Shown here: positions 323 through 49,535 of the stretch, in pieces
How the letters are laid out: every line of letters starts with the position of its first letter
Position numbering within the stretch: the first letter of the stretch is position 1
Assembly (NCBI GenBank): GCA_964534365.1
Contig: CAZHOI010000003.1
Location: forward strand, 4,310-68,309
Direction: 5' to 3'
Origin: an uncultured Candidatus Saccharibacteria bacterium
GTDB lineage: Bacteria > Patescibacteriota > Minisyncoccia > Phycocordibacterales > SW-6-46-9
Length of the DNA: 64,000 nt
Notes under the pieces: model-generated
The model's database searches: none
What the model was told of the DNA's origin: nothing
What the model saw: only the letters and a program-made list of their open reading frames with translations
Translations under genes and position numbers: made by a program

Positions 323-393
323 TACCGGCTCGTCTAATGGTAGGACAACAGGTTCTGGTCCTGTTAATCGGGGTTCGAGTCCCTGGCCGGTAG
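323..393 (+). tRNA. tRNA-Gln (anticodon CTG)
   Basis: Manual cloverleaf: acceptor TACCGGC/GCCGGTA, D-arm GTCTAATGGTAGGAC, anticodon stem ACAGG/CCTGT with loop TTCTGGT, T-arm GGGGTTCGAGTCCCTG. No encoded CCA. Confidence 0.8.
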
Positions 394-591
394 CTACTAG
401 CAATTAAGTCTAGGTACAAAGCACTTGGGCTTTTTTGCTAGTTTTTGGTGTGGGACTCGCACCACAAGAGTATTTCCATTTTGTAAACAAAACTAGGTCA
501 AAGACAGAGGTGTGCTAAGTCAAAACTTTTAGTTTTGAGCCGAGTCGGGGTCGAGAGTTCTTATAAGCGTAGCGAATTAGAAACTCGTGAC

Positions 592-610
592 CGAGTCCCT
601 GGCCGGTAGC
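592..610. repeat. 19-bp direct repeat of the tRNA-Gln(CTG) 3' end (cgagtccctggccggtagc; first copy at 376-394)
   Basis: Exact 19/19 match seen in the sequence, about 215 bp downstream of the tRNA. The 545-612 stretch looks like a degenerate tRNA 3' half (att-like scar). Confidence 0.7.
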
Positions 611-640
611 ATAAATATTACAATACACTTTTCTTCATTA

Positions 641-700
641 TAGGGTGACTGTCACCTATTTCACCTATTTTAGGGTGACTGTCACCTATTTCACCTATTT
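641..700. repeat. Tandem 30-bp unit x2 (tagggtgactgtcacctatttcacctattt), i.e. 4 copies of the (T)CACCTATTT motif headed by the palindrome GTGAC-T-GTCAC
   Basis: Perfect tandem duplication seen directly. The same motif family recurs at 1798-1888. Confidence 0.85.
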
Positions 701-702
701 TT

Positions 703-1096
703 AAAGAACCATTTAAGGATAAACCATATACTAAAGACGATGCCGTAAGCTTTATAAACTGGATTAAAGAAGTATGGGATAAAAACAGTCACTTTGTATT
801 TATTGTTAGAGATAGTAGCAATAGCATTATTGGAGCAATTGATATTAAAGGATCTGACTTAAAAAAAGGAGTAATAGGATACTGGTCCCGATAGAAACGC
901 CAGTGGATTTATGACCAACACCCTTAAAGCTCTTGAAGACTTGGCTAAAGAAGCTGGGTTTAGGATTCTTTCTGCAAAGGTTCTAGTTGATAACAATAAA
1001 TCTAAAGGTGTCTTAGAAAGAGCTGGTTTTAACGAAAGAGAAAAGAGGGAAGGTGAGAGTGACTTGTATGATGAATATTATAAAACAATAAGCTAA
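703..1096 (+). pseudogene. GNAT-family N-acetyltransferase (RimJ/RimL-like), N-terminally truncated and frameshifted
   Basis: One frame (codons 700-894) reads FKEPFKDKPYTKDDAVSFINWIKEVWDKNSHFVFIVRDSSNSIIGAIDIKGSDLKKGVIGYWSR*, with no start codon and abutting the tandem repeat. The GNAT C-terminal half (…RNASGFMTNTLKALEDLAKEAGFRILSAKV…GVLERAGF) continues in a different frame from about 893 to 1096. Confidence 0.6.
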
Positions 1097-1109
1097 AAGC
1101 AAAACTTAG

Positions 1110-1156
1110 TTAAAAGTTCTGACGTCGTTCCACATGTTTAGCACAAATTTTAAGTT
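1110..1156. repeat. Cassette-junction element copy A (consensus AAAGTTCTnACnTnnTnCCAnAnnGcTAGC … ACTTTT)
   Basis: Starts 14 bp after the GNAT stop. Aligns with copies B, C and D. Confidence 0.6.
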
Positions 1157-1169
1157 ACAATTATAGTTA

Positions 1170-1739
1170 ATGAAAGACTTTAATGATTCACAAAAATATA
1201 TTTGGGAGTCAGAAAAATATTGGACTAAGAAAATCATTCCGCATTTAAATGATAAAGTCCTTAAAGTTGGAAACGGATTAGGTTACATGAGTACTTTCTT
1301 AAAAAACGAAGGGGTTGATTTAACCATTCTAGATGTATCAATTGATGAGCAAGCGATTAATAAAGATGAAGTAATTTTATACGATGGACAAACCTTTCCT
1401 TTTAAAAATAACTCTTTTGATTCGGTTATGTGTACTTTTGTTCTACACCATACCCTAGAACCTCAAAAGATACTCAGAGAAATGAAAAGGGTAGCAAAAA
1501 GAGTAATAATTCTTGAAGAAACATATACTAATATATTTTCAAAATTAGATCTAGTTTATAGAGATATCTGGGTAAACTTTACCGCTGGTCAGCTATCGAA
1601 GATTTACTGGAACAGTTATTTTAGTAGGAAGTCTCTCCCTGAGACATTGTCAAAACATAACTTATCTGTAATTACTCACTATAAAGAGAATAAGAGGAGT
1701 TATATGAAAGAACTTTACGTGGCAGAAAATATTAAATAA
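1170..1739 (+). CDS. Class I SAM-dependent methyltransferase (Methyltransf_11-like)
   Basis: VLKVGNGLGYMS matches a glycine-rich SAM motif I; FDSVMCTFVLHH matches the acidic/hydrophobic motif II/post-I. 189 aa. Confidence 0.7.
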   Translation: MKDFNDSQKYIWESEKYWTKKIIPHLNDKVLKVGNGLGYMSTFLKNEGVDLTILDVSIDEQAINKDEVILYDGQTFPFKNNSFDSVMCTFVLHHTLEPQKILREMKRVAKRVIILEETYTNIFSKLDLVYRDIWVNFTAGQLSKIYWNSYFSRKSLPETLSKHNLSVITHYKENKRSYMKELYVAENIK

Positions 1740-1794
1740 AAGTTCTGACTTGGTACCAAACCGCTAGCAAATATTACACCACACTTTTTACAGC
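1737..1794. repeat. Cassette-junction element copy B
   Basis: Begins at the methyltransferase stop codon (taaaagttctgacttggtaccaaaccgctagcaa…cacactttttac). Has an inverted AAAAGT/ACTTTT at its two ends. Confidence 0.65.
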
Positions 1795-1797
1795 TTT

Positions 1798-1888
1798 TGG
1801 GTGACTGTCACCTATTTTCACCTATTTTGTGTCACCTATTTTGTCACCTATTTTCACCTATTTTCACCTATTTTCTGTCACCTATTTT
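1798..1888. repeat. Iteron-like array: 7 copies of CACCTATTTT at 10-14-bp spacing, headed by GGGTGACTGTCACC
   Basis: Seen directly. The head is identical to the 641-700 array. Confidence 0.85.
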
Positions 1889-1940
1889 GAGAGATTTAAG
1901 AAATAGCTTATTTCATTTCTTTTCAGTGAAAGGAGTTGCC

Positions 1941-2195
1941 ATGACTTTTAGAGAACTAGACACTAAAGCACGAAAGTTAGAAAAAGATACTAATAACAAA
2001 GTTAAGTTTTTATCACCCGAAGATTTATCAGAGATAGTAACAGGAGCATTTTTTCTAATAATGGAAGAATGGACGAGAGATTGTAGAGATAGTTTGAGAA
2101 ATAACAACAATAAGTTTAAAAACCGAATAATGTGTGTTAAGACTATAGTAGAAAGACATGCTGCGATGATAGTTGAAGAAAAAGATTTAAATTAA
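1941..2195 (+). CDS. Hypothetical small protein (84 aa)
   Basis: ATG is preceded by gaaaggag (a Shine-Dalgarno-like site). The upstream part of the tracked ORF lies in the repeat array, so the start was moved to 1941. Confidence 0.45.
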   Translation: MTFRELDTKARKLEKDTNNKVKFLSPEDLSEIVTGAFFLIMEEWTRDCRDSLRNNNNKFKNRIMCVKTIVERHAAMIVEEKDLN

Positions 2196-2248
2196 AGTTC
2201 TTACTTCATACCAAACAGCTAGCAATGTTTTAGGCAACCACTTTTGGC
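2193..2248. repeat. Cassette-junction element copy C
   Basis: Begins at the stop of the 84-aa ORF (ttaaagttcttacttcataccaaacagctagcaa…ccacttttgg). Confidence 0.65.
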
Positions 2249-2579
2249 ACTCCACTACGTTAACGCTGGACTCCGTAAGCTCTTCGGAGCTGATCCGATA
2301 TGGCACACCATGCGCTTCTATACTTTGCACTTCCCTGAAAAGGGTGACAACTACAAAGTACTTACGTTCACTGGTCTCGCTCACACTGATCAATACGGTC
2401 ATCTGTTTGGCCTTACCGCGAGCGTTCATCTGGACAAGAACGCGCAAGGCAAATGGCAGGTCGAGAAGGTTGTGATTAATCCGCAAATGCGATCTGAGGT
2501 AGCTAACCCTCTGCCGAAACGAGTGGAATATCTCGTAAATGGACACTGGGACGGCCTTCCTCTGCGCACTGCACTCTAA
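2244..2579 (+). CDS. Hypothetical protein with GC content visibly higher than its neighbours (the neighbours look AT-rich); start uncertain (TTG at 2244 or ATG at 2310)
   Basis: Long ORF with a strong compositional contrast to the neighbouring genes. No recognisable domain. Confidence 0.4.
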   Translation: MALHYVNAGLRKLFGADPIWHTMRFYTLHFPEKGDNYKVLTFTGLAHTDQYGHLFGLTASVHLDKNAQGKWQVEKVVINPQMRSEVANPLPKRVEYLVNGHWDGLPLRTAL

Positions 2580-2634
2580 CCTCATCTTGACCCTAGAAGA
2601 CCTCATCTTCGCGGGCAGGGTGAGGTTTTCTAGT

Positions 2635-2693
2635 TAAATTAAAGTTCTAACATCGTTCCACACTGCTAGCTATCAAACTTTTGTGATCCGCCA
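2635..2693. repeat. Cassette-junction element copy D
   Basis: ttaaattaaagttctaacatcgttccacactgctagctatcaaacttttgtg. Lies between convergent genes and overlaps the 3' end of the C39 peptidase gene. Confidence 0.6.
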
Positions 2694-3056
2694 CTGTGGT
2701 TTTCCCAGCAATCGCCTGCGATAGCCGGCGCTAATATCAATATTTGGGTAATTAATCCAGGGATCCATCCAGCCTCTATCGGTATTTAGCAGGTAGTGCC
2801 CCGAACCGTATTTTTTATTCCTAGCAAAAACAATGTCTCCATTAGCATAATTGTAATTTTGTACTTTAATTGATTTATAGGTTAGTCCAACTTTGGATAG
2901 CGCCTTGATAATGTTGTGATTATAAAAACCTCGTAGATGCTGATACTTGCTCCCGTAATCAAACAATTTTAGTGATTCTTCGTACGTAATATTTAGTACC
3001 GAGGCAACACAAGCTACCGAGCAGCCCATCATTGCTTGTTGTTTTACCAGATTCAT
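2673..3056 (-). CDS. Standalone papain-like cysteine peptidase, C39-like (BtrH-like)
   Basis: Q…C motif QQAMMGCSVACVASVL (Gln about 5 residues before the catalytic Cys) and a His motif GSGHYLLN, in the order typical of C39. Confidence 0.5.
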   Translation of the reverse strand: MNLVKQQAMMGCSVACVASVLNITYEESLKLFDYGSKYQHLRGFYNHNIIKALSKVGLTYKSIKVQNYNYANGDIVFARNKKYGSGHYLLNTDRGWMDPWINYPNIDISAGYRRRLLGKPQWRITKV

Positions 3057-3421
3057 AAACTTAACTATAAGATTTTATATTTTATTAACAATTACTCGCT
3101 TGTAGTTCAAAAACTGATTGTGTCAATTCAATCAATTCTTTGAATATTTTAGTTAGATGAATCTCTATCCTTTTTAAAAACAAATAGGTACAAAGCCCTA
3201 TTTTCTAGTTATACCCACTATCCCCACAAGTTACTTTTTATTAACAAATTTACCATTTTCTAGACAACGATGATTTACTGTGATGGGTTGTGTGGATAGC
3301 AGCTAAATTGGGGAAATTATCTCAACCATCAACTAATTTAGATGTAGACTAAGAATATAGCTGATATTTTCAGTCAAGTACCAAATTATCCAGTTTATTA
3401 AACAGCTCTTAAGATAAATAA

Positions 3422-4756
3422 ATGAAACCAACTCACGTCACAAAACGAGACGGCTCGCTACAGCCTTATAATATTGAAAAAATTACTGCCGTTGCCTTGA
3501 AGGCATTACAGGAAGTCAATGATGAAGTCGGGCATGATCCTGCCACGCTAATCCAACATGCTGAAAAGATTGCCAAACGCACCGAAGAAAAAGTGTTGGT
3601 AATGTGCCGAGCCGCCGCTGCCGCTACCCCCGGCAGCCGCTATGCCAAAATGTGTCAAGACGGCAATCCAGCTGTAGAAGAAATACAGGATTTGGTAGAA
3701 ACCTCCCTCATGGAGCTCGATTTTTTCGAGGCCGCCAAAGCCTTTATAATCTATCGCGACAGCCGCAAGAAATTACGTGAACGATCATTGTTTCGCAAGC
3801 GAACCACCCTCAAGCCTTATGAATACACCGAATTATCTGATTATGTAGATGCGGTTAGACATTCATACTGGGTTCATACTGAATTTTCCTACACTTCAGA
3901 CGTGCACGACTTTAAAACGGGGACTACCTCGGCCGAAGCCAGTGCGATCAAAAATGCCATGTTGGCCATTGCTCAGATCGAAGTAGCGGTAAAAAGTTTT
4001 TGGGGTGATTTGTACAAAAAAATGCCTAAACCAGAAATTGCAGCCGTTGGGATGACTTTTGCTGAATCAGAGGTCCGGCACATGGATGCTTATTCGCATT
4101 TATTAGAAATTTTGGGTCTGAACGCCGAATTCAAAGTGCTGGATCAAGCCCCGGCGATTAAAAAACGGATGAATTATCTGGACAAAGTAGTGCAGCTATC
4201 AAAAACCGAAGACGACGAAACCTATGCCCAATCAATAGCCTTATTCTCGCTATTTATCGAACACGTATCCCTGTTCTCGCAGTTTTTGATTATGATGGCG
4301 TTTAACAAACACAAAAATCAATTTAAAGGTATTTCTAATGCGGTTGAGGCCACGTCAAAGGAAGAGCAAATCCATGGTATGTTTGGCACTGATTTAATCA
4401 ATTTGATCAAACAGGAACATCCGGAATGGTTTGGAGAAGAACATGTCGAAAGAGTTAGGGAAATGTGTCAAGAAGCTTACGAGGCCGAGCTAGAAATTAT
4501 TGACTGGATATTTGAAAAGGGTGAACTGGATTTCTTGCCAAAAGCAGTAGTTGTCGAGTTTGTTAAAAATAGATTTAACCGAGCTCTAGAAGGGATTGGG
4601 CTAACATCCATGTTTACAGTTGATGATGAATTGCTGGCAGAGACAGATTGGTTTGATCAAGAAGTCTTTGCCACCAAACATACCGATTTCTTCTATAAAC
4701 GATCAATCAATTACACTAAACGACAGCAATCAGTCACCACCAATGACTTATTCTAA
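3422..4756 (+). CDS. nrdB: Ribonucleotide reductase class I beta subunit (NrdB/R2) with an N-terminal ATP-cone domain
   Basis: N-terminus VTKRDGSLQPYNIEKI is ATP-cone-like. Ferritin-like di-iron core includes FAESEVRHMDAYSHLLE. Located immediately upstream of nrdA. Confidence 0.85.
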   Translation: MKPTHVTKRDGSLQPYNIEKITAVALKALQEVNDEVGHDPATLIQHAEKIAKRTEEKVLVMCRAAAAATPGSRYAKMCQDGNPAVEEIQDLVETSLMELDFFEAAKAFIIYRDSRKKLRERSLFRKRTTLKPYEYTELSDYVDAVRHSYWVHTEFSYTSDVHDFKTGTTSAEASAIKNAMLAIAQIEVAVKSFWGDLYKKMPKPEIAAVGMTFAESEVRHMDAYSHLLEILGLNAEFKVLDQAPAIKKRMNYLDKVVQLSKTEDDETYAQSIALFSLFIEHVSLFSQFLIMMAFNKHKNQFKGISNAVEATSKEEQIHGMFGTDLINLIKQEHPEWFGEEHVERVREMCQEAYEAELEIIDWIFEKGELDFLPKAVVVEFVKNRFNRALEGIGLTSMFTVDDELLAETDWFDQEVFATKHTDFFYKRSINYTKRQQSVTTNDLF

Positions 4757-4797
4757 AATCAAAAGATTACTAACAACTAATTCCACTTAATATAAAT

Positions 4798-6477
4798 ATG
4801 GGCAACTTTAATTGGCTAAACGAAAATTCACGACAGTTTCTAGAACGAGGCTATTTGCAAGAAGGGCAAACTCCTGAAGACAGGATCAGGTTTATTGCCG
4901 ATAAAGCTGAAGAATACCTTCAGGAAGACGGCTTTGGCGACAAATTTTATGATTACATGTCTCGAGGCTGGATATCCCTGGCATCACCGGTGTGGTCAAA
5001 TTTCGGTCTGGAAAGAGGGTTGCCAATTAGCTGCTTTGGATCATACATTGATGATAATATGGGTTCGATTCTATACACCCATGCTGAAATTGGGATGATG
5101 TCAAAATATGGTGGCGGTACTTCTTTTTATGCTGGGGCTTTGCGACCACGAGGGGCTAAAATTACCAATAACGGCAATTCATCTGGGGCAGTACATTTTA
5201 TACAGTTGTTCGATAAGTTAGTTGAAATAGTCTCGCAAGGGAAAGTGCGACGGGGTAACGTCTCACCATATTTACCAGTCGAGCATGATGACATTAACGA
5301 ATTCCTGGATATTGCTACCGAAGGACATCCAATCCAAGGTTTAACGCATGGCGTTACAGTAACAGACGAATGGTTACAAGAGATGGTGGATGGAGATGAA
5401 GAGAAACGCGCTGTGTGGGCCAAGATAATACAGCGCCGGGGTGAAATTGGGTTTCCCTACATAATGTATGCTGATAATGCCAACAATAACAAACCGCAAG
5501 TATACAAAGACAAAAATAAACAAATATATGCGTCTAATTTGTGCAGCGAAATAATGTTGCCATCTTCGAAAGACGAATCGTTTGTATGCTGCCTGTCATC
5601 AGTTAACGTTCTGCATTACGATGACTGGAAAGACACTGATTTAATCGAGACCATGGTTAAATTCCTGGATGCTGTCATTTCTGATTTTTGTGTCCGCCTA
5701 GAATCACTGCGAGATTCTGATGACGAAGAACAACAAACTGCCTTCGAGTTCATGAAACGAGCCTATAAATTTGCTAAAGAACATCGTGCTGTTGGTCTGG
5801 GCCTTTTGGGGTGGCATTCATTATTGCAATCAAAAATGTTGGCTTTTGATGATGAAAAATCGATGAAATTAAACGCTGAAATCTTCTCGACCATGAAAGA
5901 ACGCGCCGAACAAGCATCAGCCGAGCTAGCCGAAAAACTAGGCGAGCCAGAAATGCTAAAGGGTTACGGTCGGCGTAATACTACGCTCTTGTCTGTTGCC
6001 CCCACCACTTCTAGTGCTTTTATCCTAGGTCAAGTATCACAATCCATCGAGCCGCTGATGTCTAATTGTTATGTCAAGGATCTGGCAAAAATGAAGGTAA
6101 CCGTCAAAAATAAATTTCTCAAAGAGCTGCTGGCTGAAAAAGGTCATGATGATAAGAAGACATGGGATTCAATTCGAGATAATGATGGTTCAGTTCAGCA
6201 TCTGGATTACTTGTCAGACGAAGAAAAGCAAGTATTTCAAACCTTTTCCGAAATTGATCAGTACGCCATTATTGAACAAGCCGCCGTTAGACAAATGTTC
6301 ATCGATCAGGGTCAATCCTTGAATGTAATGATCGGCCCTTCAACGACTGCCAAAGAGATCAATAATCTATATTTAACCGCCTGGCGTAAAGGCATCAAAG
6401 CTCTCTATTATCAGCACAGTATGAATGCCGCTCAAGAATTAACCCGTAAAAAGGTTTGCGAGAGCTGTGAAGCGTAA
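4798..6477 (+). CDS. nrdA: Ribonucleotide reductase class I alpha subunit (NrdA/R1), short form without an N-terminal ATP-cone
   Basis: Active-site motif NLCSEIMLP. C-terminal Cys pair CESCEA. 559 aa. Confidence 0.9.
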   Translation: MGNFNWLNENSRQFLERGYLQEGQTPEDRIRFIADKAEEYLQEDGFGDKFYDYMSRGWISLASPVWSNFGLERGLPISCFGSYIDDNMGSILYTHAEIGMMSKYGGGTSFYAGALRPRGAKITNNGNSSGAVHFIQLFDKLVEIVSQGKVRRGNVSPYLPVEHDDINEFLDIATEGHPIQGLTHGVTVTDEWLQEMVDGDEEKRAVWAKIIQRRGEIGFPYIMYADNANNNKPQVYKDKNKQIYASNLCSEIMLPSSKDESFVCCLSSVNVLHYDDWKDTDLIETMVKFLDAVISDFCVRLESLRDSDDEEQQTAFEFMKRAYKFAKEHRAVGLGLLGWHSLLQSKMLAFDDEKSMKLNAEIFSTMKERAEQASAELAEKLGEPEMLKGYGRRNTTLLSVAPTTSSAFILGQVSQSIEPLMSNCYVKDLAKMKVTVKNKFLKELLAEKGHDDKKTWDSIRDNDGSVQHLDYLSDEEKQVFQTFSEIDQYAIIEQAAVRQMFIDQGQSLNVMIGPSTTAKEINNLYLTAWRKGIKALYYQHSMNAAQELTRKKVCESCEA

Positions 6478-6698
6478 TCAAACAATTAACGGATAACAAA
6501 GACTGATAACAAAGATTTATAATACGATAACAATAAAATTGATATCTTGAATTATTGCTAATTGTTAGGAACTATGTCATGATGTTTGACAGCAATTAAC
6601 TTAGTTCAATGGCGTAGGGGAGATTTGTCTTGATGGATAGGTCAGAACTGGAGCTCAGTGGAGTAGAGAGTTGCTGATCTATCAATCAAATAAACAAA

Positions 6699-6959: not shown

Positions 6960-6975
6960 CATCTGGACGATTCAT

Positions 6976-7002: not shown

Positions 7003-7055
7003 ATTATCACTTAAAAGTCAAAATTAGTTATTAAGTATGCGATAATACAAAGAAT

Positions 7056-7577: not shown

Positions 7578-7582
7578 ATATA

Positions 7583-10679: not shown

Positions 10680-10680
10680 G

Positions 10681-13155: not shown

Positions 13156-13251
13156 TAGCTAGCTCAGTGGCAAGATTTATAAATTTGCTTATAATGCCAC
13201 TAGCTTATTCGGTTCTGTTATTAATTATCAGTTACCGTTGTAAGTCAACCT

Positions 13252-13274
13252 TATCGGTTCGTCTAATGGTAGGC
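13252..13274 (+). repeat. Partial duplicate of the tRNA-Gln 5' half (acceptor + D-arm, tatcggttcgtctaatggtaggc)
   Basis: 22/23 identity with the first 23 nt of tRNA-Gln(TTG), which lies 165 bp downstream. The match then diverges, and there is no anticodon or T-arm. Confidence 0.6.
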
Positions 13275-13416
13275 TCAATGAAGCATCATATTATGAAATA
13301 ATATGAATTGATGAATTAGTGCAAGCGAGCCAATAAATTTATTTAGGCGAGTCGCAGTCCGCGACAGACTCTAAACTAATAAATAAATCTCTATTATTAT
13401 AGAATTCTAGAAACAG

Positions 13417-13490
13417 TACCGGTTCGTCTAATGGTAGGACACTTGGTTTTGGTCCAAGGAATCGGGGTTCGAGTCCCTGACCGGTAGCCA
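13417..13490 (+). tRNA. tRNA-Gln (anticodon TTG), CCA encoded
   Basis: Acceptor TACCGGT/ACCGGTA, anticodon stem CTTGG/CCAAG with loop TTTTGGT, T-arm GGGGTTCGAGTCCCTG, then GCCA. Confidence 0.8.
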
Positions 13491-13496
13491 CTTTTT

Positions 13497-14045
13497 TATA
13501 GAAACCCACGGGTAAACCCGTGGTCCTTCTCTTTCACAGCAACACTTGTTGCTGTCCTGAATCCTGGTGTCCTTGGTGCTCTACATAGTGCTTGATAATT
13601 TCTTCGTCAGCTCCAATAGTTGAAGAGAAGTATCCTGGTGACCAGACAATGTTTTCTTTCCAATAAACTTTGGCGAGCCAAGTAAACTTTTTACGCAGAC
13701 TCGAGGCTGATTGGCTTTTAAGTTGTGCCACTACAGATGATACTGAGTACTTGGGTGGTATTAGTAATACCATATGTAAGTGATCTTGATCGAAGCCAAT
13801 CGACCCTCGAACAACACCAGGCATCTTCTTTTCGAGTGAGTTAAGGACTTTAGTGAGATAGCTAGCAACACCAGGCTTCAGGATCTTCCTGCGATATTTA
13901 GTTACCCAAACTATGTGGTATTTGTGATAGTAAGTGCTATGAGCGGTACTGTAGTATTTCATTCTGTACCCCAGCATATCGCATACAGATCCTCATTCAT
14001 CCACGGCTAAAGCCGTGGTGTTCTGTCCCCAAGGGGGCGGGATAA
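13497..14045 (-). mobile_element. IS200/IS605-family insertion sequence (tnpA only)
   Basis: A Y1 HUH transposase gene is flanked by near-identical subterminal palindromes, CCACGGGTAAACCCGTGG at 13506-13523 and CCACGGCTAAAGCCGTGG at 14001-14018. The ends are approximate. Confidence 0.6.
13534..13962 (-). CDS. tnpA: IS200-type transposase TnpA (Y1/HUH)
   Basis: YHIVWVTKYRRKIL…HLHMVLLIPPKYSVS…Y is typical of IS200 TnpA. Start taken at the internal MKYYS. Confidence 0.85.
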   Translation of the reverse strand: MKYYSTAHSTYYHKYHIVWVTKYRRKILKPGVASYLTKVLNSLEKKMPGVVRGSIGFDQDHLHMVLLIPPKYSVSSVVAQLKSQSASSLRKKFTWLAKVYWKENIVWSPGYFSSTIGADEEIIKHYVEHQGHQDSGQQQVLL

Positions 14046-14063
14046 AAAAACTTAACCCCCGCA

Positions 14064-17043: not shown

Positions 17044-17061
17044 GCCCGGGCACCACACCAA
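17044..17061. repeat. Inverted-repeat partner of the tRNA-Leu(TAA) 3' end (cccgggcaccacaccaacttat)
   Basis: A 22-bp sequence at 17044-17065 is the reverse complement of 17317-17338 (tRNA acceptor 3' + CCA + flank). The pair brackets the GIY-YIG gene. Confidence 0.65.
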
Positions 17062-17062
17062 C

Positions 17063-17317
17063 TTATTCTAACAAGTTACTTATTCGTTTTCGTAGCTGCG
17101 AATAGGCTCGACTTTTTAATTTAAGATTTTGTTCTCGCTTACCCGCATCATCCTCGGCCTTATATGACTCATAGTAGATTAACTCGAGGGGTCTTCGAAG
17201 TTTAGTTGATTTAACTTGTCCAGTAAGGTGTTCATTTAATCGTCGCTTAAGATTATTAGTAGATCCAATATAAGAATTTCCATCCTTAATGCTCTTCAAT
17301 ATGCAAACATAAAACAT
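17063..17317 (-). CDS. GIY-YIG nuclease-domain protein (UPF0213-like)
   Basis: FYVCILKS…SYIGSTNNLKRRLNEHLTG…YYE…REQNLK matches GIY-YIG. Start set at the internal Met, because the longer ORF would overlap the tRNA-Leu gene. Confidence 0.7.
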   Translation of the reverse strand: MFYVCILKSIKDGNSYIGSTNNLKRRLNEHLTGQVKSTKLRRPLELIYYESYKAEDDAGKREQNLKLKSRAYSQLRKRISNLLE

Positions 17318-17326
17318 AAGTTGGTG

Positions 17327-17412
17327 TGGTGCCCGGGGAGGGACTCGAACCCTCACGCCAATATGGCCGGGGATTTTAAGTCCCCTATGTCTACCGATTC
17401 CATCACCCGGGC
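17327..17412 (-). tRNA. tRNA-Leu (anticodon TAA), type II, CCA encoded
   Basis: Reverse complement reads GCCCGGG TG ATGGAATCGGTAGACAT AGGGGA-CTTAAAA-TCCCC, a long variable arm, GAGGGTTCGAGTCCCTC CCCGGGC A CCA. Confidence 0.8.
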
Positions 17413-23889: not shown

Positions 23890-23973
23890 GCGTCGATGGC
23901 AGAGCGGTCAAATGCACGAGACTGTAAATCTCGCGACTTTAAGTCTACGCAAGTTCGAATCTTGCTCGGCGCA
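23890..23973 (+). tRNA. tRNA-Tyr (anticodon GTA), type II
   Basis: Acceptor GCGTCGA/TCGGCGC, D GCA-GAGCGGTCAAA-TGC, anticodon stem CGAGA/TCTCG with loop CTGTAAA, variable hairpin GACTTTAAGTC, T-arm GCAAGTTCGAATCTTGC. Confidence 0.8.
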
Positions 23974-23982
23974 CTAGCGCAG

Positions 23983-24015
23983 AAACCCGATAGGTTTAAT
24001 CTATCGGGTTTTGTG
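23983..24015 (+). terminator. Perfect 11-bp-stem hairpin (aaacccgatag-gtttaat-ctatcgggttt) followed by TGTG/T-rich; candidate terminator after tRNA-Tyr
   Basis: Seen directly. The T-tract is short. Confidence 0.5.
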
Positions 24016-24064
24016 CTTTAGCACCAAGGTTCGAAGCAAGGTACTGGGAGTGATAGCGAGCAGC

Positions 24065-24082
24065 AAATCTTGCTCGGCACAC
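24065..24082. repeat. Near-duplicate of the tRNA-Tyr 3' end (aatcttgctcggc-acac; original 23958-23974)
   Basis: 17/18 match with a single-base deletion. Preceded at 24028-24041 by a degenerate T-arm-like ggttcgaagcaagg. Confidence 0.6.
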
Positions 24083-24445
24083 TTTTTTGCAATCAGTAAT
24101 CCCGAGTTGCGGGACTACATCGCTATGGCATAGAAATTAAAATTTCTATTAGCAACATTAGTATCTGAAATTTGAAGCAAGATGCTGGGGAATGTGAGAA
24201 GTGTTTTCGCTAGGGTATAGGTTTTTTAAAAATTATTAGCTGATTTCGCCATAAGGCTGAATTAGAGTGATACGAGTGATTAATTAGGAGTCAGCAAATT
24301 TCTTAATAAATTATTTACAAAACCTTTCACAAAACTGTTTTTTGTTGTATAAAGTAGCTAGACCATCCCTCTGGCTCTCGTCAACCCTGACTAGAGCTTT
24401 AACCAGAGAGCGCTGGATTGCTGCTCTCGTACCCCCAATACTTAC

Positions 24446-43800: not shown

Positions 43801-43809
43801 TCAGTATTA

Positions 43810-44748
43810 ATGTCTACTAAATCGCTCTACCAAAAGTACCGACCATCCAAATTTAACGAGGTTATTGGTCAGGATAGAATTGTCTCCACTTTAACCAATC
43901 AGCTTGAAAACCAAACGGTTAATCATGCCTATTTATTTAGCGGGTCCAGGGGGCTTGGGAAAACTTCAATTGCCCGAATTCTTGCAGGTGAGTTGCAAAT
44001 CAATAATGAAGATTTATACGAGATTGATGCTGCTAGCAATCGTGGCATTGATGATATTCGTGAAATCCGTGATGGTGTCAAAGCGCTACCGTTTAGCTCG
44101 CCCTATAAGATGTATTTGATTGATGAAGTGCATATGCTAACCAAAGAAGCATTTAATGCCCTATTGAAAACCCTGGAAGAGCCGCCTAATTACGTAGTGT
44201 TTGTTCTGGCCACTACCGAAGCGCACAAGGTTCCCGACACTATCAAGTCTCGTACCCAATTATTTAACTTTACCTCGCCAACAATTACCGATATCTCAGA
44301 ATTGATTAGCCGAGTAGCTCAGGCAGAGTCCAGCAAGGTGGATCAAACCATTGTCACCGAAATCGCTAAACGAGCCAACGGGTCATATCGTGATGCGCTA
44401 GGACAGCTGCAAACCTATTTGGCTAATCCGGCAGATTTCATGGAAACCAAAAGCGATGCGGATATGCGCCTGCAAACATTAGAAGCCTTGGGATCCGGTT
44501 CAGGTATGACCAAATCGGATATCATCAATATGGTTCAGTCGATTGAAAACCCCAGTCAGTGGTATCAAAATCTCTTAACAGATATCAGTGACACTTTATT
44601 TCAACAGCTAGATAATAGTCAGCAGCCAAGCCAGTTGACAATTCAGCACTTAAAAAAAATCCTTGAATTTAGAAATCAGTTTAGTGGCGATAATCCAGAC
44701 GTTGCCCGGTCCAGTTTATTGGTGCTCTTGGTCGAGATGTTTGCTTGA
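43810..44748 (+). CDS. dnaX: DNA polymerase III gamma/tau subunit (short form)
   Basis: YRPSKFNEVIGQ…GSRGLGKTS and the sensor motifs. 312 aa. Confidence 0.8.
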   Translation: MSTKSLYQKYRPSKFNEVIGQDRIVSTLTNQLENQTVNHAYLFSGSRGLGKTSIARILAGELQINNEDLYEIDAASNRGIDDIREIRDGVKALPFSSPYKMYLIDEVHMLTKEAFNALLKTLEEPPNYVVFVLATTEAHKVPDTIKSRTQLFNFTSPTITDISELISRVAQAESSKVDQTIVTEIAKRANGSYRDALGQLQTYLANPADFMETKSDADMRLQTLEALGSGSGMTKSDIINMVQSIENPSQWYQNLLTDISDTLFQQLDNSQQPSQLTIQHLKKILEFRNQFSGDNPDVARSSLLVLLVEMFA

Positions 44749-44770
44749 AAAGCTGATACAATATCGCCAT

Positions 44771-45559
44771 ATGACCAAAACAAACGCCACTGATACTGAC
44801 AACCTTCCAAGTGCGACAGCTAATAATCAGCGATCAATTAATAAACCTGATGATTCAATTTATTTAACCCCCGCCGCTGTGTTGATTGGATCGATAATAG
44901 TAGCTATTGCCATATTGATTGGGCCGGGGACACCAGGTGCAACTGACAGTGCAAATTTGGCAGCCAATGATGATGAAGTTGCTGAAGTTGAATCAGGCGA
45001 CAATCGTCTAGCAATCGCACTGCAAGCCGCTGAAGTCAATCCAGCGGAAATAGAACAATGTATCAATGACAATGAATATGCCAGTGAAATAGCAGCTGAC
45101 ATTCAGAATGCAACCGAGACCGGCGGGCGAGGAACACCCTGGACTATTGTGGTTGACCGCCAAACTGGTGAACGCTACCCAATAGGCGGCGCGCTTCCAG
45201 CCGAGGCAGTAAACGAACTGTTGGATAATAATTTTGATGGTCTGCCTGAAACTGCTTTTGAGAATATCAATCTAAAGGCAGTTACCGCCGTATCAGCTGA
45301 TGATTATTATCGCGGCCCCGGTGATGCAAGATACGTATTTATAGAATATTCGGACTTTAATTGCGGTTATTGCGCGCGGTTTCATTCAACCATGAAGAAT
45401 TTGTTAGACACCCGCTCTGATGTAGGTTGGGTTTATCGACAATTTGCTATTTTGAATAATTCTGAATCAGTAGCTAATGTTGCAGAATGTGTCGGCGAAG
45501 GTGGCGAAAATGAAGACGCTTTTTGGCAGTTTGCTGACGCTTACTTTAACCAAAGTTAA
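44771..45559 (+). CDS. Membrane-anchored DsbA-like thiol:disulfide oxidoreductase (thioredoxin fold, CGYC)
   Basis: TM helix. CxxC motif FNCGYCARFH near the C-terminus. A cis-Pro-like GTPWTIVVD motif lies upstream of it. Start moved to 44771 to avoid overlap with dnaX. Confidence 0.5.
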   Translation: MTKTNATDTDNLPSATANNQRSINKPDDSIYLTPAAVLIGSIIVAIAILIGPGTPGATDSANLAANDDEVAEVESGDNRLAIALQAAEVNPAEIEQCINDNEYASEIAADIQNATETGGRGTPWTIVVDRQTGERYPIGGALPAEAVNELLDNNFDGLPETAFENINLKAVTAVSADDYYRGPGDARYVFIEYSDFNCGYCARFHSTMKNLLDTRSDVGWVYRQFAILNNSESVANVAECVGEGGENEDAFWQFADAYFNQS

Positions 45560-45577
45560 TGGTATAATCTAATTATT

Positions 45578-46135
45578 ATGGAAATCCTTATTATTATCAT
45601 AATTGTTTTGATATTGGCTCTGATTGCAGTAGCCTTTATCTATAACCGATTTATTAAATTACAAGTTCGATCCGATGAAGCCTGGGCCGATATTGATGTT
45701 CAATTAAAACGCCGTTATGACTTGATTCCCAATTTAATTAATACGGTTAAAGGCTATGCCCAACATGAATCCTCGACCTTCCAGCAGGTGACCGAGGCCA
45801 GAAACATGGCGATTAATGCTAGTAGTGTAGCCGAACAACAACAAGCCGAAAACATGCTAACCGGCGCTTTAAAATCGTTGTTTGCAGTTTCCGAAGCGTA
45901 TCCGGACCTCAAGGCGAATGAAAATTTCCTAGAATTACAACGAGAGCTATCAGATACCGAGAACAAAATACAGGCTGCCCGACGTTTTTACAATACCGTG
46001 GTCCGCGATTTGAATACTATGGTCAAAAGCTTTCCATCAAACCTGGTGGCTTCACTATTTTCATTTCAAACCCGCGAATACTTTGAATTGGACGAGGATT
46101 CAGTCGAACGAGAAAACGTTCAGGTACAGTTTTAA
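45578..46135 (+). CDS. lemA: LemA-family protein
   Basis: N-terminal TM followed by NRFIKLQVRSDEAWADIDVQLKRRYDLIPNL, a LemA signature. Confidence 0.85.
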   Translation: MEILIIIIIVLILALIAVAFIYNRFIKLQVRSDEAWADIDVQLKRRYDLIPNLINTVKGYAQHESSTFQQVTEARNMAINASSVAEQQQAENMLTGALKSLFAVSEAYPDLKANENFLELQRELSDTENKIQAARRFYNTVVRDLNTMVKSFPSNLVASLFSFQTREYFELDEDSVERENVQVQF

Positions 46136-46167
46136 GTTATTAAATGTCTTTATATTGTTAGTCAGAA

Positions 46168-46563
46168 ATGTCATCGCAACAAATTAAACACATATTTATA
46201 GTCCAAGACGATCAGTCAATGGCAACGGTACTGCGCAAAAAATTAGAAAAAAAGGGCCACCGAATTTCACTCTTTGATAATGGTTACGATGTATTAGAGG
46301 CGATAAAACACACTAAACCTGATTTGATTTTGTTGGAGGTCAAGCTACCGGTTATAAATGGTCTGAATGTCCTGGCGGAGCTTAAAAATCAACCTGATAC
46401 CAATTCTATTCCCGTTATCATGATCAGCAACCTTGATCAAACTTCTCCCAAAGACTTAAGATCTGCCGATTCAAATCCAACTGAACTATATCTAGTAAAA
46501 AGCTCCTGGACATTATCAGCCCTGCAAAACAAAGTAGAAAAAACCCTGTCCGATCTAAAATAG
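46168..46563 (+). CDS. Single-domain response-regulator receiver (REC) protein with Glu at the phospho-acceptor position
   Basis: DD acidic pocket (IVQDDQS). The canonical DLILLD is replaced here by DLILLEVKLP. Conserved downstream Ser/Thr and Lys positions are present. Confidence 0.65.
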   Translation: MSSQQIKHIFIVQDDQSMATVLRKKLEKKGHRISLFDNGYDVLEAIKHTKPDLILLEVKLPVINGLNVLAELKNQPDTNSIPVIMISNLDQTSPKDLRSADSNPTELYLVKSSWTLSALQNKVEKTLSDLK

Positions 46564-46599
46564 CAGAATCAATTACTTAATCTTGTTATAATAAAATTA

Positions 46600-46869
46600 A
46601 TGTTAAGGTTAAAAACGAAAAAAACGCATGACCAAGCAGCATCTGATTTATTGCCAGTCGGTAATGATGTTTATAATTATCACGTCGAGCAAGTTTTTCT
46701 GGGTCATCACACTATTTTTACCTTATTAGGTCTGGCAATTGGGGCTGATTTAGTCGGTAGGACAATATATGAATTTATCGTTCAGTACGCCAATCCTGTT
46801 GTTGTAGTTGGTATTGGATTAATTTTATTTATTTTGTCAGGTTTACTCATCGGATCTTTTAACGATTAA
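46600..46869 (+). CDS. Small hydrophobic protein (89 aa), hypothetical
   Basis: ORF ends 1 bp before the htpX start. Composition only. Confidence 0.3.
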   Translation: MLRLKTKKTHDQAASDLLPVGNDVYNYHVEQVFLGHHTIFTLLGLAIGADLVGRTIYEFIVQYANPVVVVGIGLILFILSGLLIGSFND

Positions 46870-46870
46870 T

Positions 46871-47752
46871 ATGGCTGCTAATTTATACAACCAACAAGAT
46901 AAGAATGTTTTTAAAACTTGGCTTTTAATGTTGGCCTTTATTATTTTGGTGTCAGGATTGGGTTGGGCCATGTCATATGTTTTCGAATCTATAATTGTAT
47001 TTTACCTCGCCATCGGATTTAGCCTCGCTATGAATATCTATGCTTATTGGAATTCGGATAAGGTAGCCATCAGACAGGCCAGGGCTCAAACAGCTACAGA
47101 AAACCAGTATCCTGATCTGCACAATTTGGTCGAGAATCTGGCGATTACGGCTGGATTGCCTAAACCAAAACTCTATATTATTCCCGATTCGTCTCCTAAT
47201 GCATTTGCTACTGGGCGTAATCCTGAAAATTCGGCTATTGCGGTAACTCAGGGTCTGCTAGATAATTTAGATCGAACTGAAATCGAAGGAGTAATTGCTC
47301 ATGAAATGGCTCATATCGGCAATCGAGACATTCTAGTCATGACTATTGCAGTAGTTTTGGCCGGATTTATTGCCCTGGCAGCTGATTGGTTACTGCGCGG
47401 TTTTGCCTTTGGATCTAGCGATAATCGGGGAGGGGGAGTACAAATATTAATTGCGATTGGAATTTCTCTATTTGCATCATTATTTGCCACGTTGTTGCAA
47501 CTGGCAATATCACGACGTCGTGAGTATTTGGCTGATGCCACCGGGGCATTACTAACTCGCTATCCCGAAGGACTAGCTAGCGCTTTAGAGAAAATTGCCT
47601 CTAGTCCACGCCCACTAAAAACCGCCTCGAAAGCAACAGCACATTTATATATCTCGCAACCATTTGGGGCTGCCAAGCGCCTGTCTGGACTATTCGCTAC
47701 CCACCCCCCGATGGAACGACGTATCGCCGCCTTACGAGGTTTAGAGGTCTAA
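46871..47752 (+). CDS. htpX: Zinc metalloprotease HtpX (M48)
   Basis: HEMAHI zinc motif and 4 TM segments, with lemA upstream. Confidence 0.9.
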   Translation: MAANLYNQQDKNVFKTWLLMLAFIILVSGLGWAMSYVFESIIVFYLAIGFSLAMNIYAYWNSDKVAIRQARAQTATENQYPDLHNLVENLAITAGLPKPKLYIIPDSSPNAFATGRNPENSAIAVTQGLLDNLDRTEIEGVIAHEMAHIGNRDILVMTIAVVLAGFIALAADWLLRGFAFGSSDNRGGGVQILIAIGISLFASLFATLLQLAISRRREYLADATGALLTRYPEGLASALEKIASSPRPLKTASKATAHLYISQPFGAAKRLSGLFATHPPMERRIAALRGLEV

Positions 47753-47755
47753 AAG

Positions 47756-48421
47756 ATGACACAAATAATATTCGAATACGACTTAGAAAAAGATGTTGAG
47801 AATTTTCTTAAAGCAATTAAATCTAAAAACAATAAGAAATTGTCCACCCTAGCATCAGAATACGTAAAAATTAATGGTGAGAATTATGATCAGGAACTAG
47901 TCAAAAGTTTTTTATCTTCTTACCATATAAATAATTTTATTGATCCAGAGCTTGTACAGAAAAAAATAGAACGAAACTGGCGATCTAAAGAAAAATCCTT
48001 TTTCGATAAAGTTGAAGCAATGTTCTCAGCAAAATATCATAAATCCAATATTCAAAGTTATTTAACAACTGAAAGTCGTTGTACTTACAATATTTCTGAA
48101 AATTACTTTTTTACCACTATACAATATCCAGAAAAAGCACACTGGTTGATCATGCATGAGGTTTTACATTTTTATACGTGGTATAAGTATAAAAATTCTA
48201 TTTATAACAATGGTGTGGACGATCGGGGCTATAATATAATCAAAGAATCACTGACGGAAATCCTTAATCTTGAGTTTAAGAATCTAATGGGCAATGAAGT
48301 TGACAGAGGTTACCCCCAACATCAAGAAATGAGAGCTTTGATAAAAGATAGCTGGCAAAATAATAAAGATTTAGATTTGGTGATAAATGACGCAATTAAT
48401 AATGTACTTTGCGAGTATTAA
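47756..48421 (+). CDS. Hypothetical protein carrying an HExxH motif (IMHEVLHF)
   Basis: Motif only. Start is 4 bp after the htpX stop. Confidence 0.35.
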   Translation: MTQIIFEYDLEKDVENFLKAIKSKNNKKLSTLASEYVKINGENYDQELVKSFLSSYHINNFIDPELVQKKIERNWRSKEKSFFDKVEAMFSAKYHKSNIQSYLTTESRCTYNISENYFFTTIQYPEKAHWLIMHEVLHFYTWYKYKNSIYNNGVDDRGYNIIKESLTEILNLEFKNLMGNEVDRGYPQHQEMRALIKDSWQNNKDLDLVINDAINNVLCEY

Positions 48422-48563
48422 ATTTTAAAGTTGTGTTTTATGTCACTTGAAAATAAGCTTAACATAGCGGGCCATCTGGACTAAGTGTCCGCACTTTTTA
48501 ATATCACAAGATTTTTAGACAACTTTTTATTTATCAAAATCAAAGCATGTGGGTCATCAAATT

Positions 48564-49073
48564 TTAAATTAAATCTAAAATTTTATCCGCAACTTCTTTA
48601 GGTGTAACATTTGTATTTATAGATATTGTATTTTGAATCTTTTTAAATAAGTTGTTTTGGGAATTAAAGATGAAATCTTGTTCCTCTTTCTTTTTAGCAA
48701 AATGATTATTCGTTCTCTGGTTGAGTCTTTCAATAATTTTATCTTTTTCTAATTCTAGAATAATAACTTTATCAAAAATTTTACTAAATTCGGTCATATT
48801 TTCTACAAAACCTGAAACAAAAACATGTTTATTTTCTCTTACATAAGACAAAAAAGAGGATAATTGCCCTATGTCACAATACCAGCCATGCTCAGTAAGC
48901 CAGTCAGAATCACGGCCATCTGGCCCATACTCCACTTTTTCTTTTGTTTTGTGATTTTTCCAAACACATATTCCGGTAGCATCGACGTCTATAACAAGAT
49001 ATCCGTATTTCTGTAGTTCAGCTAATGTTGTTGTTTTTCCAACCCCACTCATTCCTGTAATTAGTACTTTCAT
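48564..49073 (-). CDS. P-loop NTPase / small-molecule or nucleotide kinase-like (AAA_33-like)
   Basis: Walker A ITGMSGVGKTTT at the N-terminus. 169 aa. Confidence 0.55.
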   Translation of the reverse strand: MKVLITGMSGVGKTTTLAELQKYGYLVIDVDATGICVWKNHKTKEKVEYGPDGRDSDWLTEHGWYCDIGQLSSFLSYVRENKHVFVSGFVENMTEFSKIFDKVIILELEKDKIIERLNQRTNNHFAKKKEEQDFIFNSQNNLFKKIQNTISINTNVTPKEVADKILDLI

Positions 49074-49139
49074 ATCTCTATTTTAACTTAATACAAACAG
49101 GAAAATAGGTCATGCCAATACTTTTTGGTCGATGCGGTC

Positions 49140-49157
49140 ACGACAGGATTCGAACCT
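49140..49157. repeat. Duplicate of the tRNA-Ser T-arm (gacaggattcgaacctgc) within a non-foldable tRNA-like remnant at 49127-49195
   Basis: An 18-bp identical T-arm with a different, unpairable acceptor. Confidence 0.55.
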
Positions 49158-49195
49158 GCGCTGTATTGCTCTACACTCGCTTTCTCCCTCACAAA

Positions 49196-49283
49196 GCGGA
49201 GAGGACAGGATTCGAACCTGCGGTCGGTTTAACCCGACACTACCTTTCCAAGGTAGCGCATTCAACCACTCTGCCACCTCTCC
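49196..49283 (-). tRNA. tRNA-Ser (anticodon GGA), type II
   Basis: Reverse complement reads GGAGAGG TG GCAGAGTGGTTGAATGC, anticodon stem CTACC/GGTAG with loop TTGGAAA, variable arm TGTCGGGTTAAACCGACC, GCAGGTTCGAATCCTGT CCTCTCC G. Confidence 0.75.
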
Positions 49284-49350
49284 GCTTTAATAGGGACTGC
49301 AACTTTCATCTAATTACCAAATAATAGTTCTTGGGAAAATTGGTTGCAAG

Positions 49351-49382
49351 CGAGCACCTAAAACCGCTCAGCCACCTCTCCA
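49351..49382. repeat. tRNA-Ser-like 5' fragment (acceptor + D-arm only), minus strand
   Basis: Reverse complement GGAGAGGTGGCTGAGCGGTTTTAGGTGCTCGC matches the first ~20 nt of tRNA-Ser and then lacks the anticodon and T arms. Confidence 0.5.
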
Positions 49383-49535
49383 GATAATTTATAGAATACC
49401 GTAAATTAGATACTGGCACGAGTGTTAAAATCAATTGCATTATCAAATTCATCTAAGAAAGCGTTTATAATCATAAGGTATAATATCCCTATGCCGAAGT
49501 TCAAGTAAGCACTATAAATTTAAAATTTTAAATTA

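Follow-up and report, generated by a model that had tools for sequence, protein, structure and literature searches.

Tyrosine and serine integrases, as K. P. Williams reportedly set out in 2002 and as the Islander database is said to record, insert integrative elements into tRNA genes, with the T-loop and the anticodon loop as sublocations. Integration through a folded hairpin site, as when an integron attC recombines with attI or the CTX phage attP(+) with dif, is expected to yield a target copy, the body of the element, an inverted copy, a structured spacer and a direct copy, in that order. The cis-mobilizable elements (CIMEs) and accretion arrays related to integrative and conjugative elements (ICEs) of Streptococcus are non-autonomous, retain only the parts that flank the attachment (att) site, stand in tandem at one such site and are presumed to be mobilised in trans. 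In the Candidate Phyla Radiation (CPR, or Patescibacteria), genomes are tiny and tRNA genes mostly single-copy. Here we analyse a 64,000-nt stretch of such a genome (the window; contig CAZHOI010000003.1 of assembly GCA_964534365.1, from an uncultured Candidatus Saccharibacteria bacterium; positions are window positions), in which tRNA genes stand beside partial copies of themselves. We propose, with moderate confidence, that these copies bound resident modules which are non-autonomous, use site-specific recombination to enter tRNA genes and restore the end that they displace.

ARAGORN and Rfam agreed on eight tRNA genes in the window, five of which (Gln-CTG, Gln-TTG, Leu-TAA, Tyr and Ser) carry a partial copy of themselves at most 500 nt away. 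Reading of the sequence and an exact-match script recovered every copy position listed in a first-pass annotation of this DNA, while its claim that nearly every tRNA gene is so accompanied proved overstated, since the tRNAs for Cys, Trp and Leu(CAA) showed no copy above chance (longest match 8-9 nt, judged against shuffled 500-nt flanks). Specifically, nucleotides 376-394 of tRNA-Gln(CTG) recur directly at 592-610 (19/19), and nucleotides 13420-13438 of tRNA-Gln(TTG) recur directly at 13255-13273, 165 nt upstream (19/19). For tRNA-Tyr, 23958-23970 is repeated at 24066-24078 (13 nt exact; 17/18 over 24065-24082), with a T-arm-like CCAAGGTTCGAAGC downstream of the gene at 24024-24037, and for tRNA-Ser 49204-49222 is repeated at 49142-49160 (19 nt; 24/27 over 49134-49160). 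The 3′ end of tRNA-Leu(TAA), together with its CCA and flank (17316-17337), is perfectly complementary to 17045-17066 over 22 nt. A diverged 5′ fragment of a Ser-type tRNA was moreover found at 49351-49382 (11 nt exact and, by eye, about three-quarters identity over some 32 nt).

When the 500-nt flanks were shuffled 1000 times and the longest match was scored, the observed copy length was never reached for Gln-CTG, Gln-TTG, Leu-TAA or Ser (0/1000 each) and was reached three times for Tyr, which rules out a chance origin of the copies. Missed tRNA genes or pseudogenes were rejected as well, as the fragments gave no sub-threshold tRNA hits.

Named matches to the ClpC-type ATPase of the window came from Parcubacteria, Paceibacterota and Patescibacteria, which places the window in a CPR/Patescibacteria bacterium. 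A GTDB scan with IF-2 found only about 50% identity to any species representative, and these loci served as distant controls rather than for synteny. Loci of closer relatives, obtained via homologues of ClpC and NrdB, revealed both occupied and empty sites at tRNA-Tyr, tRNA-Gln(CTG) and tRNA-Gln(TTG), so that the lack of insertion polymorphism that the first-pass annotation had named as the mark of mere local duplication is not what is seen. The tRNA-Tyr insert of about 108 nt is present with the same layout in the window and in locus L018 (ClpC 85% identical), in both cases as a terminator hairpin with compensatory changes, followed by TGTGCTTTAGCAC and the tRNA 3′ copy; tRNA-Tyr is bare, without insert, in L019 (ClpC 83% identical) and L015 (87%). 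In L260 (NrdB 83% identical) a histidine kinase gene directly behind tRNA-Gln(CTG) replaces the whole gene array that follows this tRNA in the window, and there is no 3′ copy; at its tRNA-Gln(TTG), the 5′ fragment, the insert and any IS200/IS605-type element are all missing. A promoter-like block (GTGGCAAGATTTATAA..TTGCTTATAATGCCACTA) lies some 20 nt upstream of tRNA-Gln(TTG) in L260 and recurs in the window upstream of the 5′ fragment of this tRNA. By these positions, the fragment is the original 5′ end, displaced when about 165 nt entered at the D-loop.

The exact copies and the empty sites in relatives thus bear out att-like duplication through insertion into tRNA genes. Their interpretation as footprints of excision has to be dropped, because a precise excision would not leave the duplication behind, and what lies between the copies is still resident.

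The pairing of tRNAs with copies of their own ends, proposed earlier as a check, was positive for 23 of the 52 tRNAs surveyed (the window and 19 further loci), distant CPR genomes included. On the tRNA strand, the layout consists of the tRNA, a terminator hairpin, an inverted copy (A′), a conserved core of about 100 nt and a direct copy (A), the whole insert measuring about 60-250 nt and holding no gene. A′ is the inverted tRNA 3′ end, in which a small hairpin often separates an acceptor part from a T-loop/T-stem part; A begins in the T-loop and reaches the tRNA end. The cores fall into two related types, which have in common a long hairpin with the loop GAGCGAAGCGAA. The type-1 core reads A′T-GAAGCC(C/T)GATTG, a P2 hairpin, CAATTGGGRTACTG, a 5-bp P3 stem with a GTA triloop, and the tRNA 3′ copy. 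The type-2 core, which is widespread too, reads GAAAGACGGAG.., GAGTCGGGGTCGAGA, a hairpin and CGTGAC before the copy; its defining features are GGTCG/CGTGACC as the closing helix, a long hairpin that covaries and has the loop GAGCnnnGCGAA, and a tRNA copy that starts from the T-loop. At tRNA-Leu(TAA) of L015, for instance, a type-2 module forms an insert of about 160 nt within a 20-nt direct repeat, and no GIY-YIG nuclease gene of the kind found at this tRNA in the window is present.

In metagenome contigs, the type-1 pattern was met at 120 or more loci (127 cores), with a calculated chance expectation of less than one match. A same-strand upstream tRNA is present in the locus for 88 of the 127 type-1 cores listed, within 120 nt in 71 cases, and among these listed matches the adjoining tRNAs represent at least 32 anticodon types. 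For roughly half of these 88, the last 21-22 nt of the tRNA recur as an exact match of 19-25 nt that starts some 10 nt past the core. The direct repeats mostly begin in the T-loop and end at the tRNA end, which they overrun by 0-3 nt in 26 of 33 cases, and the Gln-CTG and Tyr copies of the window fit this pattern. The inserts are therefore no random remnants, as had been supposed, since they belong to two conserved, covarying families, with modules of about 100-250 nt, at 32 or more anticodon types.

Neither core pattern had a match in 2.9 million viral contigs, and a first 15-mer scan for phage attP arms yielded only chance-level hits. With Rfam 15, only tRNAs matched in the window and in L009 (11880-13700), so known RNA families (small ribozymes, tmRNA and RNase P RNA among them) were discarded, and a literature search yielded no account of either the modules or their core sequences. 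TIGR-Tas arrays, which consist of 36-nt units (PMC12045711), are unrelated.

The secondary structure of the cores is strongly maintained. Across 107 type-1 cores, 91.2% of cells were paired (74.9% in shuffles), and the covariation score was 0.433 as compared to 0.143 after shuffling (reached in 0/500 shuffles; slid partners at most 0.11). Many double changes occur in P2b, P2c, P3 and the A′/A helix, and the invariance of P2a is imposed by the search pattern. In the type-2 alignment (A2), which includes window positions 541-605 as one of its rows, 15 of the 23 hairpin pairs show compensatory changes. Outside P1, G.T pairs outnumber A.C pairs by 48 to 21 on the tRNA-sense strand, which indicates that one strand folds, be it RNA or single-stranded DNA. 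Pairing of A′ is possible with A or with the 3′ end of the tRNA itself, and gives a branched hairpin. Moreover, the covariance models built here found independent copies in GTDB loci L005, L006 and L009 (model R1) and in L015, L006 and L008-L011 (model R2), with the tRNA-Leu insert of L015, which was independent of R2 training, scoring 37.3 bits.

Behind single tRNAs, units of both types accumulate and make up tandem arrays (L014, L164, L246, L230 and L181; further arrays in L193 and L252), with three tandem units in L014. In L230, tRNA-Gln(CTG) has type 2 ahead of type 1 behind it; L181, L212 and L215 show type 1 ahead of type 2. Cores with no more than two differences over about 58 nt occur beside different tRNA types, the near-identical sets joining Leu(CAA), Leu(GAG) and Tyr-like ends, three Arg isoacceptors, His with Ser, and Cys with Gly. 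In the mixed arrays of L164 and L193, successive direct copies derive from different tRNAs. Solo type-1 cores without an upstream tRNA body were seen in L141, L142 (two), L149 and L248, and also in L190, L202 and L235; these are preceded by a conserved stretch of about 34 nt (ACAAAGTTGTCGAACCAACTCCAGCTCGGCGCAC) that looks like the 3′ end of a tRNA-Tyr and has a small T-arm-like hairpin.

The strong covariation in all helices, the surplus of G.T over A.C on the tRNA-sense strand and the constant orientation relative to the tRNA would also suit structured RNAs with a function, or cis-acting structures, that are joined to tRNA genes and whose arms are kept complementary by selection. Such structures might act as a trailer for termination, in tRNA 3′-end processing or in antisense control of the tRNA, and would spread by duplication and be lost via the direct repeats. 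Arms that match the local tRNA even where cores are near-identical, a hairpin loop common to both types, and the possible pairing of A′ with the tRNA's own 3′ half across the terminator point the same way. On the other hand, the modules lie behind an intrinsic terminator, they match no Rfam family, and no conserved promoter was noticed in the aligned sequences, though no promoter scan was made. They are also dispensable, since they are missing from the same tRNA in close relatives; one tRNA can be followed by a stack of several units that differ in type, solo cores lack a tRNA body altogether, and many copies, those of the window included, are internally deleted or degenerate. We consider a functional RNA or cis-acting structure unlikely as the explanation of the modules.

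One locus, L166 (4060-12140), holds a 7.9-kb island between tRNA-Val and a type-1 A′-core-A end, with a single, distal copy. The island encodes a large serine recombinase of about 600 aa beside the tRNA, genes with AAA_21 and AAA_15 ATPase domains, and a terminase small-subunit fragment, and is the sole full-size candidate found for an autonomous version of the module. Other long gaps between a tRNA and a core contain IS3-like open reading frames (ORFs; L236) or an IS110-like ORF (L199), which by eye, from their translations, appear to be secondary insertions. Ordinary att scars, left by prophages or genomic islands that integrated at tRNA genes and later lost their interior, would account for an island with a serine recombinase and a terminase fragment, for direct repeats that run from the T-loop to the tRNA end as in known tRNA-integrating elements, and for the accessory-gene array behind tRNA-Gln(CTG). 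However, independent deletions would not yield the same covarying core of about 100 nt at 120 or more loci and 32 tRNA types, nor uniform sizes, and a classical phage attP with one tRNA end does not predict cores that are shared by different tRNAs and bear different arms. Together with the lack of either core pattern in the viral contigs, this makes scarring by lost elements improbable.

The order of direct, inverted and direct copies might also arise by local template switching of replication at the palindromic terminator, resembling an inverted triplication and involving no mobile element, and the inverted copy indeed often includes the flank and extends the terminator stem (the window tRNA-Leu; L010, L211 and L266). 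As the origin of the modules this is very improbable, since it explains neither a conserved core family across genomes and tRNA types, nor the exact boundaries at the T-loop and tRNA end, nor the 5′ inserts; it may nevertheless be a means of keeping A′ complementary. Three further ideas were considered, the first two of which were discarded. Copying from mature tRNA, as at a retroviral-type primer-binding site, is at odds with copies that lack CCA unless it is gene-encoded and with inverted copies that include genomic flank. A TTCGAA target-site duplication around the core fails because the T-loop TTCAAG gives a left copy CTTGAA, which is inverted and not direct. A casposon- or CRISPR-like repeat duplication remains an analogy only, as neither terminal inverted repeats nor a Cas1 gene was seen.

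Under our proposal of module entry by site-specific recombination, 3′ modules would enter at or near the T-loop and bring a replacement tRNA 3′ end and a terminator, with the original 3′ end being pushed downstream and left as a direct repeat. The 5′ inserts would mirror this at or beyond the D-loop and leave the old 5′ end upstream: the Gln-TTG copy ends in the D-loop and the Ser fragment runs further, and the displaced 5′ end of Gln-TTG would still be attached to its old promoter. The folded structure could serve as the recombination site, by analogy with an integron attC or the CTX phage attP hairpin, and would then fold as single-stranded DNA rather than as RNA. The recombinase would be encoded elsewhere in the genome and act in trans on non-autonomous derivatives, as none was found among the scanned ORFs of the window. 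Specifically, Pfam scans of most window ORFs with 200 aa or more, those of the cluster at 58227-63961 excepted, revealed no tyrosine or serine recombinase, which agrees with the earlier statement that the window lacks an integrase gene; the only mobile-type genes among the scanned ORFs were an IS200-type Y1 transposase gene and an 84-aa GIY-YIG ORF. Going further, and only tentatively, the cores might represent a self-spreading structured module that is specific to CPR/Patescibacteria and acts on most tRNA species, with inverted and direct arms written from the adjoining tRNA 3′ end as a target-matched pair of about 21 nt. Such a module, which we find rather unlikely, could retarget itself, either in the form of a guide-like RNA or as a site of recombination in folded DNA.

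A number of observations weigh against module entry by recombination. The covarying stems and the G.T excess fit a functional RNA just as well. Because near-identical cores bear different arms, largely in agreement with the local tRNA, an element with an invariable copy of a single tRNA end is insufficient, and an extra process such as hairpin-templated correction, gene conversion or selection would be needed. In the mixed arrays, A′ matches the preceding copy in L164 (1680-2040) and the following copy in L193 (1-400), which suggests that units are shuffled, perhaps as conserved cores recombine with one another. No recombinase gene was found inside any mini-module, nor in the Pfam-scanned window ORFs; L166 is the only full-size example found, and the use of its module end by its recombinase is putative. 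Neither an excised circle nor a fresh insertion event was observed. Within the window, the Gln-TTG 5′ insert has no significant match to R1 or R2 and stands unclassified, and the Tyr and Ser inserts can only weakly be assigned to the module families.

The inserts of the window (Table 1) differ in how well they preserve the module layout. The Gln-CTG module contains a terminator-like hairpin at 406-432 (terminator scan), inverted T-arm remnants GGGACTCG (around 456-463) and TCAAAGACAGAG (around 508-519), and a core hairpin GAGTCGGGGTCGAGAG...CTCGTGAC at 541-591 that is directly followed by the tRNA 3′-end copy. Positions 541-610 constitute a type-2 member with a shortened stem, and R2 gives the module 61.9 bits, the module itself having been part of the R2 training set. 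The Tyr module has a terminator hairpin at about 23983-24012, after which the T-arm piece noted above is inverted, GGTACTG follows at 24040-24046, and the direct copy carries one mismatch. As compared to the type-1 definition, TTCGAAGC, GGTACTG and the copy are kept and P2 and P3 are lacking; with filters off, R1 matches 24024-24086 weakly, at 10.7 bits, as a P2-deleted derivative. In the Ser remnant, a degenerate inverted piece and GAAAGCGAG..TGTAGAG precede the T-arm/acceptor copy. R1 and R2 remained below significance for the Ser remnants, and the promoter-like TTGCAA-17-TATTAT sits between the Ser-type 5′ fragment and the intact tRNA-Ser.

Table 1. Coordinates of tRNA genes, tRNA-associated inserts and accessory elements in the window
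Feature	Position	Strand	Basis and remarks
tRNA-Gln(CTG)	323..394	+	ARAGORN; Rfam tRNA, 54 bits; target of 3′ module
Type-2 3′ module	395..610	+	Sequence, terminator scan; behind tRNA-Gln(CTG)
Cassette-like array	611..2680	+	Directly behind distal tRNA-Gln(CTG) copy; repeat families D1, D2, D4, D5, D8
Promoter-like GTGGCA-17-TATAAT	13167..13195	+	Upstream of displaced tRNA-Gln(TTG) 5′ fragment
Displaced 5′ fragment of tRNA-Gln(TTG)	13252..13274	+	tRNA positions 4-22 exact, end in D-loop; repeat family D6
143-nt insert without ORF	13275..13416	+	Between 5′ fragment and intact tRNA-Gln(TTG)
tRNA-Gln(TTG)	13417..13490	+	ARAGORN, Rfam
IS200/IS605-family element	13491..14060	-	Abuts tRNA-Gln(TTG) 3′ end; Y1 transposase ORF 13534-13977, PF01797, 7e-30
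Inverted copy of tRNA-Leu(TAA) 3′ end, CCA and 11-nt flank	17045..17066	+	Repeat pair I6, 100% complementary
84-aa GIY-YIG nuclease-domain ORF	17063..17317	-	Pfam PF01541, 1.1e-15
tRNA-Leu(TAA)	17327..17412	-	ARAGORN, Rfam; 17327-17337 within repeat arm 17316-17337
tRNA-Tyr	23890..23974	+	ARAGORN, Rfam
Type-1-like 3′ module, short, internally deleted	23975..24082	+	Behind tRNA-Tyr
Very short 3′ remnant	49134..49195	-	Behind tRNA-Ser; repeat family D12; family assignment by eye
tRNA-Ser(GGA)	49196..49283	-	ARAGORN, Rfam
Diverged Ser-type tRNA 5′ fragment (49351-49382) with promoter-like TTGCAA-17-TATTAT (49349-49321)	49321..49382	-	

The idea that tRNA loci act as hot spots is supported by the accessory elements of the window, as a cassette-like array, an IS200 element and a GIY-YIG gene are all found at tRNA genes. 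The array contains four repeats of about 45 nt (1098-1149, 1724-1775, 2179-2230 and 2626-2680), each of which comes after the stop codon of a single small ORF (a GNAT pseudogene with a frameshift, an S-adenosylmethionine methyltransferase and two hypotheticals), and iteron-like TCACCTATTTT runs at 637-700 and 1793-1890. These repeats differ from the module units, and any link of the array to the module family is putative. One of the hypothetical ORFs looks GC-richer, and GGTGAC-T-GTCACC palindromes occur in the array region (up to 3056), next to which lies a C39-like peptidase ORF on the minus strand.

The IS200/IS605-family element, which does abut the 3′ end of tRNA-Gln(TTG) as was said before, encodes only a Y1 transposase and carries twin hairpins (CCACGGnTAAAnCCGTGG) at 13506 and 14001. 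It was rejected as a mover of the modules, as no association was found: its hairpins are confined to the element itself, and tblastn revealed no homologue of the window's transposase (TnpA) in about 1 Mb of module-bearing loci.

The GIY-YIG ORF beside tRNA-Leu(TAA) lies exactly within the 22-bp inverted repeat, its start codon overlapping one arm and its stop codon the other. The GIY-YIG domain takes up residues 2-71 of 84, which leaves no room for a separate DNA-binding domain. Homologues with 60-75% identity occur across CPR groups, under various source names and in many cases on contigs shorter than 1.5 kb. The two for which DNA was examined (P0247 and P0266) lie between tRNA-Phe and tRNA-Pro, with the stop codon 0-10 nt from the 5′ end of tRNA-Pro or overlapping it. 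In L266-L268 and L270, tRNA-Phe is followed by the same inverted repeat as the window tRNA-Leu(TAA) (...GGCACCA-CACCAAYT ... ARTTGGTG-TGGTGCC...). More distant GIY-YIG ORFs were found directly upstream of tRNAs; in L014 and L166, still further upstream, lies a displaced 5′ fragment of a tRNA. In loci L263-L270, L014, L166 and L233, genes of this family press against tRNA 5′ ends, frequently with tRNA-Phe on one side and tRNA-Pro on the other. Judged by this placement, the GIY-YIG inserts look like a second, gene-carrying class of tRNA-associated insert, which may account for 5′ fragments; the 5′ inserts of the window contain no ORF.

Two gene arrangements away from these inserts deserve mention. 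At 3422-4756, the small subunit of ribonucleotide reductase carries an N-terminal ATP-cone, a fusion also present in all close homologues found. At 51697-53813, a gene for an S24 (LexA-like) peptidase is followed by one for a Y-family polymerase (impB/mucB/samB family), an SOS-type pair that is notable for a very small genome.

Despite the tiny size of CPR genomes, long stretches behind their tRNA genes are occupied by modules. If mobile, these would form an abundant non-autonomous class for which we found no published description, one that enters essential genes without breaking them and creates hot spots where accessory genes, insertion sequences and islands gather. Should the modules prove to be functional RNAs or folded DNA sites, they would constitute a new and large family of structures linked to the biology of tRNAs in a major bacterial radiation. 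In either case, the modules explain assembly breaks at tRNA loci and offer markers for strain typing, and the question can be tested directly with the search patterns and covariance models built here.

With regard to known systems, the modules resemble tRNA-borne integrative elements in that they are bounded by a direct repeat of a terminal tRNA segment with the tRNA left intact or rebuilt, in an identity block that extends from the T-loop to the tRNA end, in the existence of occupied and empty sites, and in the recombinase island of L166. They differ in measuring 60-250 nt, in holding neither a gene nor a recombinase (L166 alone has one), in combining a covarying hairpin core with an inverted copy of the target, in joining one core to many tRNA ends, and in the absence of their core patterns from the viral contigs.

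Miniature transposable elements with inverted repeats (MITEs), REP doublets forming hairpins (REPINs) and palindrome-associated transposable elements (PATEs) are likewise small, many-copy, hairpin-rich and non-coding, and break metagenome assemblies. Unlike all of these, the modules are strictly placed and oriented behind tRNA genes. Unlike MITEs and REPINs, they have no constant terminal inverted repeats, as their arms copy the neighbouring tRNA while the cores stay near-identical, and unlike PATEs derived from IS200/IS605 they have a 21-22-nt direct repeat derived from the target and no link to a Y1 transposase. The GIY-YIG ORFs, for their part, share with free-standing GIY-YIG homing endonuclease genes the catalytic domain, a patchy distribution (60-75% identity in distant hosts), tight adjacency to tRNAs and, in L014 and L166, partial tRNA 5′ copies upstream. 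The window protein differs in that its 84 aa include no DNA-binding domain, and its ORF lies inside a tRNA 3′-end inverted repeat and not upstream of a tRNA.

The order of parts expected from integration through attC or the CTX attP(+) is found in the modules, together with structure that is kept over sequence and with strand asymmetry, and their tandem arrays at one fixed site would each consist of units that end in a candidate recombination site. The module structure, in contrast, is branched (three hairpins), and its stem sequence varies with the target tRNA. This analogy concerns the layout, and any dependence on intI or Xer would be hypothetical: no intI integrase was found beside the window array, nor any recombinase by Pfam in the scanned window ORFs. 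The A′/A palindrome encloses a structured spacer and its junction contains GTT; the R″/R′ core sites that attC, an imperfect palindrome, carries (RYYYAAC...GTTRRRY) were not evident by reading. Finally, the modules are like CIMEs in their non-autonomy, tandem stacking and presumed mobilisation in trans; CIMEs are kilobase-sized and tied to one att site, whereas the modules measure about 150 nt and occur at most tRNA species.

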